64,000 bases of DNA from a phage (GCA_020241865.1 GCA_020241865.1_4709.1); one strand, 5' to 3'. Positions 1,365 to 63,612 are shown, counted from the stretch's first letter. Numbers and translations are program-made. The notes: a model not told the origin generated them from the letters alone.

Positions 1365-1409
1365 CATAGAACCCTCTCCCAACCCGTAAGGGAAGGGAGA
1401 GGGGATATG
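1365..1409. terminator. GC-rich palindromic intergenic hairpin (family member, forward orientation, loop GTAA)
   Basis: CATAGAACCCTCTCCCAACCC-GTAA-GGGAAGGGAGAGGGGATATG between tandem minus genes. Confidence 0.55.
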
Positions 1410-1425
1410 TCAGTTTATTAACTGA

Positions 1426-2748
1426 TTACTGCTGTGCTGCGTCAGCCGGTTTCTCAGCCGCCTGGCCGCCGTACTCTTTCAGCATTTTAGCAACGCCATC
1501 CAGGACAGCGTTACCTGCCTGAACACCGTATTTCATCAGACCGGTCTGCGGGTTCACGTAGCAGGAACGTGCGTCTTTCAGTGCAGACAGTACAGCTTGA
1601 ACACGCTGTTTTTCCTGAGCGGAAACTTCGCCTTTCTTAGACAGATCGGCTTCCATATCGTCACCGAATTTAACAGCGTCTTTGAAGCCCTGGGATTTCT
1701 TACCGATGTTGCCTTTCAGCGCCAGCAGTTTGTCGGCCAGTGCTTCAACACCGCTAACCGCAGCAGCCAGCTGATTCAGGGACAGGACGGTAGCTTCAAC
1801 TTCTTTTGCTTCGCCAGAGCGTTCCCAGGTTACTTTACCATCATTGGCTTTGAAACCCCAACCTGCCGGGCCAGCAACGTCAGCAATCGCCGGAGCGTTC
1901 AGTTTATCAGCGTACTCGGTGTGAGATTTAGCAACAACGGTACCAACGAATTTATCAGCACGATCGTCAGCAGCCTTCATTGCTTTCTCGAAGGTGTCAG
2001 CGATTTTGGTCGCGCCGGTAACCAGATCATCACCACCGATGTAACCAGAAACGCCGCTACCCAGTTTAACTTTGGTATTTTTAGCAGCGCCTTTACGCTT
2101 GGCGATCATTTCTTTCAGTTTAGCAGCACGTGCTTTCAGTTTGGTCGCGCCGTCGAAGATGCGATCCATGAACTTCACGAAGGTTTCCCAGGAAGTCTTC
2201 AGGAAGTTCTTGATGGTTGCCCACAGTTTCTGCCACCATTTTTGTTCTTCCAGGAAGATCATGTTGGTTGCATCGTAGCGGGAAGCGGAACCACCGAAGC
2301 TTTCGAAGGAAGGCATGGTTTCCGGCAGTTTGAAACCGATAGTACCACACAGACGTTTCAGATTACGCATGTGTTCTTGCGCGGTCTGTGCAGACATACC
2401 ACCGTCTTTCAGGTAGCTTTCGGTTGCAACAACGGTTTCCGTCAGTTCATCCATGGCTTCGTCCATGGCTTCTGCGGTTTCGTCGTCTTTTGCAATTTCG
2501 ATAACAACAGCATCAACCTGCTCGATATCACCACGAACTTCGATAGCCAGTTCGGTTTCAGCTGCGGTATCTTCAGCGATTTCAGCACGTTCGGTCAGTT
2601 CAGCCACAACGGTTTCATCCGCTGGTGCAGCATCAGCTGCCGGTTCTGCTTCAACGGTTGCCGCTGCATCCGGGTCGATCTCAGCAGCCAGTTGAACCAG
2701 CTGTGCGTTAGATGGATTTGCGACAAGACGATCAAAAATAGAAGGCAT
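1426..2748 (-). CDS. hypothetical protein with strongly acidic Ala/Glu/Asp-rich N-terminal ~110 aa, basic C-terminal half (possible scaffold or internal virion protein)
   Basis: 440-aa ORF, ATG with AAGGA RBS; compositional bias only, no catalytic motif. Confidence 0.7.
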   Translation of the reverse strand: MPSIFDRLVANPSNAQLVQLAAEIDPDAAATVEAEPAADAAPADETVVAELTERAEIAEDTAAETELAIEVRGDIEQVDAVVIEIAKDDETAEAMDEAMDELTETVVATESYLKDGGMSAQTAQEHMRNLKRLCGTIGFKLPETMPSFESFGGSASRYDATNMIFLEEQKWWQKLWATIKNFLKTSWETFVKFMDRIFDGATKLKARAAKLKEMIAKRKGAAKNTKVKLGSGVSGYIGGDDLVTGATKIADTFEKAMKAADDRADKFVGTVVAKSHTEYADKLNAPAIADVAGPAGWGFKANDGKVTWERSGEAKEVEATVLSLNQLAAAVSGVEALADKLLALKGNIGKKSQGFKDAVKFGDDMEADLSKKGEVSAQEKQRVQAVLSALKDARSCYVNPQTGLMKYGVQAGNAVLDGVAKMLKEYGGQAAEKPADAAQQ

Positions 2749-2812
2749 AATTTGTTTCCTTTACAATAAATTGCACATTAGCTAATGCGGCTTAAGTGAA
2801 CCGTCAGCTCAC

Positions 2813-3343
2813 TTAAAAGCCCTTAAAACCCGGTGCCATAGGTTGCCCAAACACCGCATTCAAAGTACATATGATGTCCTGGATGCCATTGTCCCAATGG
2901 AGCCAAGTACGCACCATCTCTTCGTCTGACAACGTGATATAACTCATAAGTTTACCGCTGCTTTCCAGGCGTTGGTGTGAACTTAACGACTGACGATCTG
3001 ACCAGTTATCAATCAATTGACCAGCAATCTGAACGTTCGTGTCTCGTCTACCCGTGTGAATGAACCGTAGCGTATCACGGATAAACTCCAGACTGGTGAA
3101 GTTCAGATTTGGGTTATGGCTGTTCATTTCCACCCAATCGGTGATGGGGTACATCAAACGATAAAGGGTAGAAAGAACCTGGCGTTCATATTTCCAGTCA
3201 TCGAGAGGAGTACCGTCGACCAGACGCTGATACAAACTAACAACGTCACGATCGTAGTTCTCCTGGCGTTTTACACCGTTAACCGGAAATCCGAAGAACC
3301 CGGTACCGTATAACGTTAAAGGGACGTCACGAAGTGCATTCAT
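2813..3343 (-). CDS. hypothetical protein (176 aa)
   Basis: ORF in co-directional gene string; start overlaps stop of upstream gene. Confidence 0.65.
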   Translation of the reverse strand: MNALRDVPLTLYGTGFFGFPVNGVKRQENYDRDVVSLYQRLVDGTPLDDWKYERQVLSTLYRLMYPITDWVEMNSHNPNLNFTSLEFIRDTLRFIHTGRRDTNVQIAGQLIDNWSDRQSLSSHQRLESSGKLMSYITLSDEEMVRTWLHWDNGIQDIICTLNAVFGQPMAPGFKGF

Positions 3344-60866: not shown

Positions 60867-61187
60867 TCAACGTCTTACTTTAAGCGGTATCTTGTTTCGA
60901 AAACAATAACACCGGATGGCATGTACGCTACGATTCATTATTTCAGCAATCTCTTTTAGCGTATGTTTCTTTGCAAGCGTGGCAACCCTAACCCTTTCTT
61001 CTGGCGTATATACTCCCCCACGAGGTGGTAGGTCACCCCGTTGTTTTCTCAACTTGATGTAACGTGCGCGAACAGAGCACGGTGTTCGGTTCATGCAGCG
61101 CGCTACTTCTTTATAGCTCGCTTTTGGTGACGTGCTAAGAATAAGCAGCAGTGTTTCATCTTCTTTATCCGTCCAACATTTACCCAT
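60867..61187 (-). CDS. Myb/SANT-like HTH protein, paralog 6 (short form, ~106 aa)
   Basis: ORF 60867..61337 overlaps ligase; internal ATG 61187 ([11 protein letters not shown]) with AAGGAGA RBS. Confidence 0.65.
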
Positions 61188-63249
61188 CTTTTCTATTCTC
61201 CTTAACCTTATCAATTTTCGAAATAAGCATGTTGATACTTTCTTCTTCGTTATCGGTTGCATCCCAGTCTTGGATAACGGGAATCCCCAACGCTTCAGCT
61301 TTCGCGAGTTTACTACCGGGATTACTTCCACAGACAAGAACCGTTGTGTTTTTACTTACACCGCTTGTGATTGTGGCTCCCATGGTCGCTAAACGCGTGG
61401 CGAGTTGGTTTCTATCGATGTTGTTGAAACTTCCCGTGATAACGACTCGCGTATCTAATAACGGTAACTGATTCATTTCGCGTTCCTTAACTGGAGCTGG
61501 CGCTACACCGACATCGTACAACAAATCGAAGATATATCCGCGATTTGCTTTATCGTAGATGTACGTTAGGATCTGATCGGCTGTGATCTCACCGATACCT
61601 TCAACTGCGAGTAAGCTTTCTTTATCAGCAGCTAAAAAGCTATCCACCGTCTTAAACGCGTTGGCAAGATCGCGCGCTGTGCTTTTACCTACTGTAAGAA
61701 TACCTAACCCGTAGATGAAACGTGCTAACGTAGTCTCTTTTGATTTCTGAATAGCGTCGATAACCTTGAAGGCGCTATAATCCGTAAACCCTTCCAGTTG
61801 GCTAACCTGCTCACGAGTTAACAGATAGAGATCAACCGCAGATTGCACCAACCCACAGTTGTAGACCTGTTCCAAGAACCGTTCGCCAACACCTTCGATA
61901 TCCATGACGTCACGACTTACCCAATGAATAAGACGCGCTACCGCTTGGTCAGGACAAGTTCCGGTTGCAGGACAACGCCAACGCGCTTCATTTTCCTTTT
62001 TCGTCAATACTGTCCCGCAGGTTGGACAATGGGTTGGAAAAATGATTTCTTTTCTTTCCTCTCCGGGACGCACACTCACGATTTGAGGAATGACGTCACC
62101 CGCGCGGCGGATAACAACATCATCACCAATGCACACACCTAACCGTTTTATTTCGGCTTCGTTATGCAGCGTGATGTTGCTTATCGTTGTGCCTCCAACG
62201 AACACAGGTTCGACGCGAGCCACAGGCGTGATGCTTCCGGTTCGACCTACTTGAAAATCAACATCAAGCAAACGGGTGGCTTTTTCTTGCGCTGGGAATT
62301 TCCATGCGCGCGCCCAACGTGGTGCGCGAGAGGTTGCGCCGAGCTTCTCCTGCATCGCGACGTCGTTCAGTTTTATCACCATACCGTCAATATCAAACAT
62401 TCGGTGCTCGCGTCCTGCAAGTATATCGCGATGCACCGTAATTAACGCTTCAGTCCCAACGACGATATGCGATTCGTTAAATAGACCTAATCCTAATGCG
62501 GCAACAAACCCCATTTTTGATCCCTGCGTTGCAAACGTGTAAATATTACCACCATCCATGAAAACATCGTAAGGGCAGAACAACAAACGACGTTTTGCAA
62601 CGGTTTGTGGATCCAAACGTCGTAACGTACCTGATGCCGCGTTACGTGGATTTACGTATGGTTTTTCATTGTTTGCGATGAGTTCCGTGTTCAGAAGTTC
62701 GAATGCTTTGTGTGGCATCAACACTTCACCGCGGACTTCGATTTTCTGCGGCATTAATGTTCCCATCTTCGATTGCGGTAAAACACCCATTACCGTACGA
62801 ATATTCGATGTGACATCTTCGCCTTGAACACCATCGCCGCGGGTTACTGCACGTTGCAACAGGCCATTCTCGTAATGAATCGCAATTGCTAATCCGTCGT
62901 ATTTAGGTTCGACCAGATATTCAAGAGTGTCTTCTGCTACCCCTAAGGTTTTTGCGATGGACTCCGTCCAATTCCGCAACTCTTCTTCACTGAACAGGTT
63001 ATCCAAAGACATCATCGGAGACGGATGCTTCACCGTCTCAAAACCATCGACCGGTGTACCTACACGACGGGTTGGGCTGTTAGGTGAAACCAGGCAGGGA
63101 TGTTTTGCTTCATATTCCCGTATCGTTTTCACCATGTTGTCGTATTCTTCGTCGGTGTATTTCGGTTCCGCTTTAACATGGTAATAGTAATCAGCTTCAA
63201 GGATCGTATCGATGAGTTTAAGATAGTCTAATACGGCAGTGATTTTCAT
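61180..63249 (-). CDS. ligA: NAD-dependent DNA ligase (LigA type)
   Basis: adenylation KxDG motif ([18 protein letters not shown]), four-Cys Zn finger CPTCG...CPATGTCP, C-terminal BRCT-like VVITGSF...[22 protein letters not shown]. Confidence 0.9.
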
Positions 63250-63557
63250 TTACGTTTACCTTTGTTTCTCTGGCGTTCTTCTCGGCGAGCGAGTGCGTCA
63301 CGACGACGTTTCTGTCGAACTTCTTCGGGCAACCGACGTTCGAACCAAAACAGCGGCCAGAAAATCGACCCGAGGGCGATAAAAGGGAATGCTCCCATCA
63401 TCGCAAAGCAATGTGCTGGAAGCGTGTAGGTTGGGGATTTAATACCGTGCTTATGTAACCCGATGGTCACTGTAACTATTTCAATTAGCCAGCCGGATAA
63501 ATACAGGCAGCCGAGCATCTGTAGAATCATGTTGTCGTTTCCTCCATACGAAACCAA
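63246..63557 (-). CDS. small membrane protein (103 aa) with basic C-terminal tail
   Basis: hydrophobic helices then [20 protein letters not shown]; ATGA overlap with ligase start. Confidence 0.6.
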
Positions 63558-63579
63558 AAAATTGTCAAAATGTACATCG

Positions 63580-63612
63580 GCATAACGCCCGTGCCCGCCC
63601 GTGATGGGAGGG
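63580..63612 (-). terminator. possible weak family member hairpin
   Basis: CATAACGCCCGTGCCCGCCC-GTGAT-GGGAGGG; imperfect. Confidence 0.3.

Follow-up and report, generated by a model that had tools for sequence, protein, structure and literature searches.

Hairpins followed by a TTATG tail are already known as a class of transcription terminator from the jumbo phages phiKZ and 201phi2-1. In phiKZ, ONT-cappable-seq (ONT, Oxford Nanopore Technologies) delineated 133 termination regions, 61 of which share the motif 5'-BCCYCCCCHWWDGGGRRGGBYTTATKYYGT-3', a stem-loop followed by TTAT, and six of the regions, located where genes converge, are bidirectional (Putzeys et al. 2024, Microlife; PMC10914365). 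In 201phi2-1, a motif A (n = 59) resembles the phiKZ motif and fifteen transcription termination sites are bidirectional; motifs A and B together form an elongated hairpin with stronger termination, and some of the eight terminators tested in vivo, with a two-reporter assay in uninfected host cells, were validated (PMC11512511). The present analysis concerns a 64,000-nucleotide stretch of phage DNA (GCA_020241865.1_4709.1, hereafter the window), whose intergenic gaps carry a family of G/C-rich hairpins with a comparable tail. By analogy with the two described systems, these elements are very probably factor-independent, often bidirectional terminators for the phage's multisubunit RNA polymerases (RNAPs), and the Goslarvirus counterpart of the phiKZ/201phi2-1 motif.

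When searched by megablast, the first 20 kb of the window matched Escherichia phage vB_EcoM_Goslar (hereafter Goslar) at 94.6% identity over 95% query cover. The Goslar record encodes several split RNAP beta/beta' subunits, a nuclear shell protein, and the tubulin PhuZ, and weak similarity to proteins of phiKZ is mentioned in its notes again and again. On the strength of this identity and gene content, the window is assigned to a Goslar-like, nucleus-forming, phiKZ-like jumbo phage that would transcribe with its own virion and non-virion RNAPs. Most window genes lie on the minus strand, and intergenic DNA makes up only about 5% of the window.

A hairpin family with a TATG tail

An earlier sequence-only reading had listed at least 15 palindromic intergenic hairpins in the window. 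All of the positions listed do hold hairpins, and the ten main ones are strong, their 5' arms being rich in C/T and their 3' arms in G/A. When arms and tail are considered together, the family comprises 13 loci, namely the ten main copies, two formerly classed as degenerate (42040 and 63580), and one that had been missed (53161-53187), whereas the hairpins at 13295, 43860, and 49900 lack the arms or the tail. The family is thus somewhat smaller than claimed, yet real and far above chance. Six member stems are perfect and seven near-perfect, and the RNA folding energies computed for the copies range from -17 to -34 kcal/mol, corresponding to z-scores between -3.0 and -6.7 relative to dinucleotide shuffles. 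The window contains six perfect stems of 7 bp or more with a C-rich 5' arm versus 0.025 per dinucleotide shuffle, five of the six having TATG within a few bases of the stem, and the pattern CCCTN{12,34}AGGGN{0,4}TATG has 12 matches versus 0.24 expected, a count reached in 0 of 100 shuffles. Arm-composition rules replaced a first screen for an RNAfold hairpin followed by TATG or TATA, at -10 kcal/mol, whose hits were mostly false positives within genes. A search of the window against Rfam at the gathering threshold gave no match.

Read along the direction of transcription, the layout consists of a C/T-rich arm, a loop, a G/A-rich arm, and, after 0-3 nt, TATG-CYGTT, with tails of the form YT-TATG-CYGTT (e.g., GGGAGGG-TT-TATG-CTGAT and GGAAGGG-CTT-TATG-CCGTT). 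The tail stands 0-3 nt past the stem at 12 of the 13 loci (as TATA at 53161-53187) and 7 nt past it at 19938-19980. TATGCYG is found in 7 of the 10 co-directional copies, and 10 of its 24 occurrences on both window strands lie immediately behind a family hairpin. As had been noticed before, most copies lack a U-tract; only 1 of 38 hairpin flanks has at least six T in eight, so that by this canonical measure a U-tract is not a property of the family. The AACCC-GTNA-GGGAA consensus previously put forward for all copies describes a subfamily instead, with four window members (1372-1403, 9647-9678, 32149-32180, and 37282-37311) and fifteen in Goslar; the remaining window copies have the arms and TATG tail in common and differ in their loops. 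Across the Goslar genome there are about 45 loci of the broader type, and a scan without the TATG requirement recovered 41 perfect C-rich-arm hairpins with TATG within 9 nt in 42 of 82 flanks. A scan of IMG/VR with CCAACCCNNNNGGGAAGG was too unspecific, returning at least 120 matches, mostly single chance ones; among the matches listed, several copies occurred only in three Goslar-like contigs, and a related-locus search with the RNAP subunit retrieved no contigs but these three.

All window elements lie downstream of stop codons. An element is present at each of the three convergent junctions (9626-9687, 19890-19975, and 32133-32197) and at none of the three divergent ones, and the other ten stand between co-directional minus-strand genes. 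In Goslar, we count an element at about 18 of 20 convergent junctions when reading the annotation ourselves, 9 of the 15 AACCC-core copies are located at such junctions, and the GenBank record already labels some copies, including 93445-93476, as 'putative transcriptional terminator'. Comparison of element orientation with local transcription, a check proposed by the sequence-only reading, placed tails and better folding on the transcribed strand and revealed bidirectional elements at convergent junctions: the tail lies downstream on the transcribed strand almost always in co-directional settings, and usually on both sides where genes converge. The RNA of the transcribed strand is the more stable, by 3.5-8.4 kcal/mol, in the one-directional elements at 25461-25507, 42040-42083, 50254-50284, 53161-53187, and 63581-63620, as well as in the tailless hairpin at 49900-49936; the same comparison among the one-directional window copies also gave one tie and one slight reversal, and in Goslar about 16 of 20 one-directional copies fold better on the transcribed strand. 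G.U pairs in one-directional copies render the RNA of the transcribed strand more stable than its complement, and this folding advantage favours a function at the RNA level.

Relation to the mapped terminators of phiKZ and 201phi2-1

The phiKZ transcript ends provide the closest experimental reference. In the rows used here from the supplementary tables of the bioRxiv version of Putzeys et al. (P008-P066, comprising 59 transcription start sites (TSS), and T001-T033), the mapped 3' ends T011, T012, T014, T015, and T018 fall 6-8 nt past the stem, the RNA ending in stem-(U)UUAUG(Y), and each of the pairs T012/T013 and T018/T019 represents the opposite strands of one palindrome. Direct reading of phiKZ between 100 and 150 kb found the CATAA-hairpin-TTATG layout in intergenic regions, for example ACATAGGCCCTCCCTTCGGGGAGGGCTTTATGTTGT after the major capsid gene and GGCATAAACCCCTCTCCGCATGGAGAGGGGCTATG at the convergent pair 125/126. 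When trained exclusively on copies from the window and Goslar, a covariance model detected eight phiKZ hairpins (E = 3e-5 to 0.03), among them the one after the major capsid gene, and one 201phi2-1 hairpin; the suggested scan of relatives with such a model thus retrieved terminator hairpins of both phages.

The motif also extends to more distant phages, which were found via tblastn and compared over 32-41 kb around the RNAP subunit gene. In these regions, a hairpin followed by TTATG(C/T)(C/T)GTT occurs in phiKZ, 201phi2-1, Serratia phage KpGz_1, Erwinia phage RAY, and Ralstonia phage RP31; a lack of conservation in related genomes had been named as one part of the possible counter-evidence, and the motif is present in five distant phages. 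KpGz_1, RAY, and RP31 keep the tail TTATGCCGTT and place the G-rich arm first (e.g., GGGAGGGC-GAAA-GCCCTCCC); arm order is therefore lineage-specific and the tail conserved. The corresponding regions of the SPN3US-like Salmonella phage SPFM16 (which has T-tracts instead), Vibrio phage VP4B, and Bacillus phage PBS1 lack the hairpin and TTATG layout. Judged from these comparisons, the tail is present in phiKZ, 201phi2-1, RAY, RP31, KpGz_1, and Goslar and absent from the SPN3US-like, Vibrio, and PBS1 relatives.

Both the phiKZ motif and the window elements comprise a C-rich 5' arm, a G-rich 3' arm, and a YTTATG-YYGT tail right after the stem, and both are located between genes; CATAA...TTATG palindromes stand at convergent genes in either phage, where those of phiKZ are experimentally bidirectional, and the same two-RNAP system is shared. 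The phiKZ hairpins are nevertheless short, with 7-8 bp and a tetraloop, whereas many Goslar-clade copies are bipartite, the outer stem (9 bp) being separated by an AA.AA internal loop from an inner CCC/GGG stem that closes a loop of 4 nt, and, unlike in phiKZ, their cores are near-identical across 15 Goslar loci. The elongated A+B hairpins of 201phi2-1 resemble these long bipartite copies, although the sequences of the elongating parts differ, and some of the 201phi2-1 terminators have been validated in vivo, whereas those of the window are predicted from sequence. With canonical Rho-independent terminators the family has in common a GC-rich hairpin followed by a weak hybrid, and its bidirectional copies mirror the symmetry of A-tract and U-tract; the U-tract itself is replaced by the specific tail UUAUGYYGU.

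In the mechanism proposed by analogy, the nascent RNA would fold into a G/C-rich hairpin of 9-12 bp, often extended by the inner CCC-NNNN-GGG stem, and the 6-8 nt that follow it, (U)UUAUG(Y), would form a weak hybrid in the role of the U-tract, with the transcript expected to end at or just past UAUG. Because CATAA is the complement of TTATG, copies of the form CATAA...TTATG would present the same signal on both strands and could stop both polymerases at convergent gene ends. The tail may be regarded as a functional equivalent of the U-tract because phiKZ 3' ends lie 6-8 nt past the stem at the same motif, and the earlier doubt that elements lacking a U-tract could be intrinsic terminators loses its footing for the same reason. 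Phage-RNAP terminators, which had been one of several alternatives offered, are favoured by motif identity, placement, and the mapped phiKZ ends. The motif sequence, placement, strand asymmetry, and homology come from the present analysis, and the 3' end positions in the window phage are those predicted from phiKZ.

The signal is common to jumbo phages of Pseudomonas, Erwinia, Ralstonia, Serratia/Klebsiella, and Escherichia, whose RNAP subunits are only about 30% identical. The window subunit gene at 26781-28082 has homologues in 311 jumbo-phage records, and the Goslar subunit shares at most 33.5% identity with those of other phages and about 31% with that of phiKZ. A signal shared despite such divergence and absent from other branches is therefore a candidate polymerase-specific code. 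It is conceivable, if rather unlikely, that the non-virion RNAP reads the TTATG(YYGT) tail with the same beta-lobe pocket with which it binds TATG on the non-template strand of late promoters, causing a sequence-specific pause 4-8 nt past the hairpin and then release. Were this true, a single clade of nucleus-forming phages would have a terminator code of its own, and such a code could help to account for the failure of TATG by itself to specify a promoter. Interest lies mainly in how widely the tail signal occurs, in its being the same tetranucleotide as the late-promoter TATG, and in the fast inversion and conversion of the palindromes; in practical terms, Goslar-type phages gain a terminator map that can be used and that includes predicted 3' ends, Goslar being the E. 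coli model of phage-nucleus biology.

Covariation, copy replacement, and rival readings

The alignment underlying both the covariance model and the covariation analysis comprises 16 copies of the AACCC-core subfamily from the window and Goslar, most with tails on both strands. Stems do differ between copies while staying complementary, as previously described: 99% of cells are paired, 5 of 12 pairs have changed on both sides, and the observed score was reached in 0 of 500 shuffles. A selected structure is supported by these figures, but the weight formerly placed on covariation was too great, as a few stem types are copied whole and G.U intermediates are missing. At the site of the element at 32144-32186, for instance, Goslar and the window have CCCTCTCCC...GGGAGAGGG with the loop AGCA, and two other Goslar-like contigs have CCCTCCTCC...GGAGGAGGG with the loop GTAA, CCCTCCTCC..GTAA being the commonest Goslar variant. 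This exchange of stem type looks like gene conversion between paralogous copies, and whole-stem replacement of this kind implies fewer independent compensatory events than the cell counts suggest. Identical 32-mers are also found at several Goslar loci. For the near identity of cores and stem types in many copies, copying or gene conversion among the elements is the best explanation, in preference to selection acting independently on each position. For genome scanning in general, covariation among paralogous palindromes may accordingly arise from copy replacement and not only from stepwise compensation.

The centre of the palindrome, moreover, is inverted in five orthologous comparisons between phages of about 95% identity. 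Two inversions are exact reverse complements (Goslar 93445-93476 versus window 32149-32180, where the 14-nt core is reversed, and Goslar 4149-4180 versus contig 3300045988) and three carry extra changes (Goslar 110468-110494 versus window 50260-50284, Goslar 103509-103540 versus window 42045-42083, and Goslar 224384-224415 versus the orthologous copy in a relative). These flips point to recombination or template switching between arms. Both core orientations do occur in the window, as stated earlier, because cores invert between orthologous copies; the AACCC/GGGAA asymmetry, having flipped between such close orthologues, is accordingly not a meaningful marker of orientation.

Several observations weigh against a purely terminator-based account. 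No pair in the 16 aligned copies varies on one side only, leaving no G.U intermediates; strict Watson-Crick pairing is expected if both strands must fold, but also if templated repair maintains a DNA palindrome. The AACCC/GGGAA core, the AA.AA internal loop, and the CCC/GGG inner stem are invariant in the same copies, and AACCC lies on the plus strand in 13 of the 15 Goslar cores. Together, the invariant core, the absence of G.U pairs, and the strand bias could hint at a further property, at the level of DNA or in protein binding. The window also contains two classical T-tract terminators alongside the TTATG-tailed family. Finally, transcript-end data for Goslar-type phages were not found in the literature, making the 3' ends predictions, and the ONT 3' ends of phiKZ cannot tell termination from processing or from exonuclease stalling at a hairpin.

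This last ambiguity bears on the idea that the hairpins serve RNA processing or stability, either as sites for RNase III, RNase E, or a phage nuclease or as protective 3' caps after read-through, a role that we consider quite unlikely. The hairpins are indeed very stable, palindromic copies being able to extend to about 17 bp via CAUAA/UUAUG pairing, and termination and processing are indistinguishable in the ONT ends. RNase III substrates usually span about two helical turns of near-continuous dsRNA, however, and the present stems of 9+3 bp with a 2x2 internal loop are shorter than those, with about 17 bp attained only where CAUAA and UUAUG pair; the stem-to-end distance of 6-8 nt in the phiKZ rows used fits intrinsic termination, and the 201phi2-1 hairpins terminate in the two-reporter assay in uninfected host cells (PMC11512511). 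No specific support was found for the RNase III or protein-recognition readings offered earlier. The ChmC eCLIP (enhanced crosslinking and immunoprecipitation) paper reports no binding motif and does not mention hairpins or terminators. A function as DNA, whether as a mobile or recombinogenic palindrome akin to repetitive extragenic palindromic (REP) sequences or miniature inverted-repeat transposable elements (MITEs) or as a protein-binding site, with cruciform DNA rather than RNA as the active form, would account for the identical 32-mers, the wholesale stem-type swap at 32144-32186, the five flipped cores (two of them exact), the strict pairing in the 16 subfamily copies, the single-strand bias of 13 of 15 Goslar cores, and the position of several elements at indel breakpoints between the window phage and Goslar. 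It is nonetheless improbable. REP or MITE sequences would be expected to show presence/absence polymorphism, and no empty orthologous site was seen, every window element with an aligned Goslar region being present there, for which reason the elements are not regarded as mobile; the copies change by flip and replacement, not by insertion. One-directional copies have G.U pairs, form imperfect DNA palindromes, and fold well on the transcribed strand only, and location after genes and never at divergent junctions is the rule expected of a transcriptional signal; copies that recombine with one another could still serve as terminators.

The striking coincidence of the tail with a promoter element requires separate consideration. 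Late promoters of phiKZ have TATG as their consensus, its G being position +1 (Yakunina et al. 2015; PMC4666361), and the elements might therefore be terminator-promoter cassettes in which the non-virion RNAP starts at the G behind the hairpin. In agreement with this, co-directional tails lie 24-126 nt upstream of the next start codon, and of some 14 co-directional intergenic regions containing TATG, about 9 have it as the tail of a hairpin. At convergent junctions, however, both tails face the antisense of the neighbouring gene (9642-9684, 32144-32186, and 10 Goslar junctions), and the YYGT that follows TATG belongs to the terminator motif, whereas phiKZ late promoters have the same non-template TATG with neither an upstream hairpin nor conserved YYGT, or any other conservation, downstream of it (PMC4666361); the model late promoter P119L has no hairpin. 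Among the phiKZ TSS of rows P008-P066, 0 of 59 coincide with a tail immediately following a hairpin; P049 begins at a second TATG, 5 nt past the tail, and the start sites of several others are 20-40 nt downstream. These rows argue against the TATG tail being a promoter in phiKZ in general and, together with the preceding points, make a promoter role for the window elements unlikely; we retain termination as the preferred function.

Individual elements and neighbouring differences

The three elements at convergent junctions differ in symmetry. That at 9642-9684, with a covariance model score of 67.8 bits, is a bidirectional palindrome with tails TATGCTG (+) and TATGCTC (-) between genes 6632-9625 (+) and 9688-13281 (-), and that at 32144-32186 is likewise a bidirectional palindrome, standing between a macro-domain gene (+) and 32198-32572 (-). 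The element at 19938-19980 is a hairpin, CCCCTCCC...GGGAGGGG, between the DNA polymerase gene (+) and 19976-20461 (-), with the plus-strand TATG at 19977-19980, 7 nt past the stem, and no TATG on the minus side.

Some copies between minus-strand genes also carry tails on both sides. The element at 1365-1409, CATAGAA-CCCTCTCCC-AA-CCC-GTAA-GGG-AA-GGGAGAGGG-GA-TATG, has TATG tails on both strands, scores 69 bits, and lies between a stop at 1426 and the next start at 1323. That at 20994-21036 (CCCTTCCC-loop-GGGAAGGG) also has TATG on both sides, its minus-strand tail ATG overlapping the longest-ORF (open reading frame) start of 20532-20996, and that at 25962-26006 (CTCTTCCCGCCCC-loop-GGGCAGGGAAGGG) has the minus-strand tail CTTTATGCCGTT and a weaker plus-strand tail. 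The remaining copies are directed along the minus strand. The long one-directional hairpin at 25461-25507, with a G.U pair on the transcribed strand and the tail TTCTATGCTGTT, folds at -28.4 kcal/mol on the minus strand versus -24.5 on the plus strand. The copy at 42040-42083 has a run of 12 G on the minus strand and the tail ATATGCGCGG, adjoins gene 42090-43859, and is flipped and diverged relative to Goslar 103509-103540; the corresponding run of 12 C (42047-42058), which has no equivalent in the Goslar orthologue, could be prone to slippage. At 50254-50284, CCCTTCC-loop-GGAAGGG is followed by the tail TTTATGCTGTT, the loop being flipped relative to Goslar 110468-110494, and the newly recognized copy at 53161-53187 reads GTCCCCC-TAAAT-GGGGGGGC with the TATA-variant tail CTTTATACCGATT. 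The element at 57459-57484 (ACCCTCCCG-GCA-CGGGAGGGT, tail TTATGCTGAT) has the next start codon 24 nt downstream, and that at 63581-63620 has the tail GTTATGCCGAT behind an imperfect hairpin, which contains G.U pairs on the transcribed strand.

The element at 37275-37311 (-), GCTCCTCC-AA-CCC-GTAA-GGG-AA-GGAGGAGC with the tail TGCTATG, adjoins an extra 238-aa ORF at 36561-37277 (-) that has no counterpart at this Goslar position and no Pfam match. The start codon of this ORF is likely the in-frame ATG of the tail, the G-rich arm (GGAGGAG) being placed like a ribosome-binding site; this element is the only window copy that may really start an ORF at its tail ATG. A general reading of G-rich arm and ATG as a Shine-Dalgarno/start pair was dropped, as KpGz_1, RAY, and RP31 are G-first with the same tail.

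Three hairpins fall outside the family. The perfect 12-bp palindrome at 13297-13327 (CCTAGGGGAAGG/CCTTCCCCTAGG), between minus-strand genes and with no TATG tail on the transcribed strand, is probably a terminator of another sequence type; that at 49900-49936 (-) is imperfect and tailless, and is stable on the transcribed strand only (-21.9 versus -13.5 kcal/mol); and 43860-43876 is a real hairpin that lacks the family arms or the tail. The two classical terminators are located at 24860-24887 (-), where GGTGGGG-TTCG-CCCCACC precedes T10, and at 48395-48439 (-), where a 12-bp stem precedes TTTTCCTATTTTTT. These and the TTATG-tailed copies might serve different RNAPs, virion or non-virion.

Gene content beside several of these hairpins differs from that of Goslar. 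A 589-aa gene at 42090-43859 (-), with DUF7941 and a DUF285 (BspA-like) repeat and not found at this position in Goslar, is inserted exactly between the element at 42040-42083 and the hairpin at 43860-43876, and gp096 is missing from window 49782-49956 relative to Goslar 109585-110085, the breakpoint adjoining the hairpin at 49900-49936. The DNA polymerase of the window (18138-19889, +) is a single uninterrupted 583-aa ORF, whereas Goslar 79690-82469 holds gp068 followed by the NUMOD1/HNH endonuclease gene gp069, which suggests a homing-endonuclease insertion at the Goslar DNA polymerase with no counterpart in the window phage. Next to the element at 9642-9684, the variable large protein encoded by 9688-13281 (-), for which Pfam gives no match, is 1197 aa long in the window phage versus 930 aa in Goslar gp064 (72031-74823).

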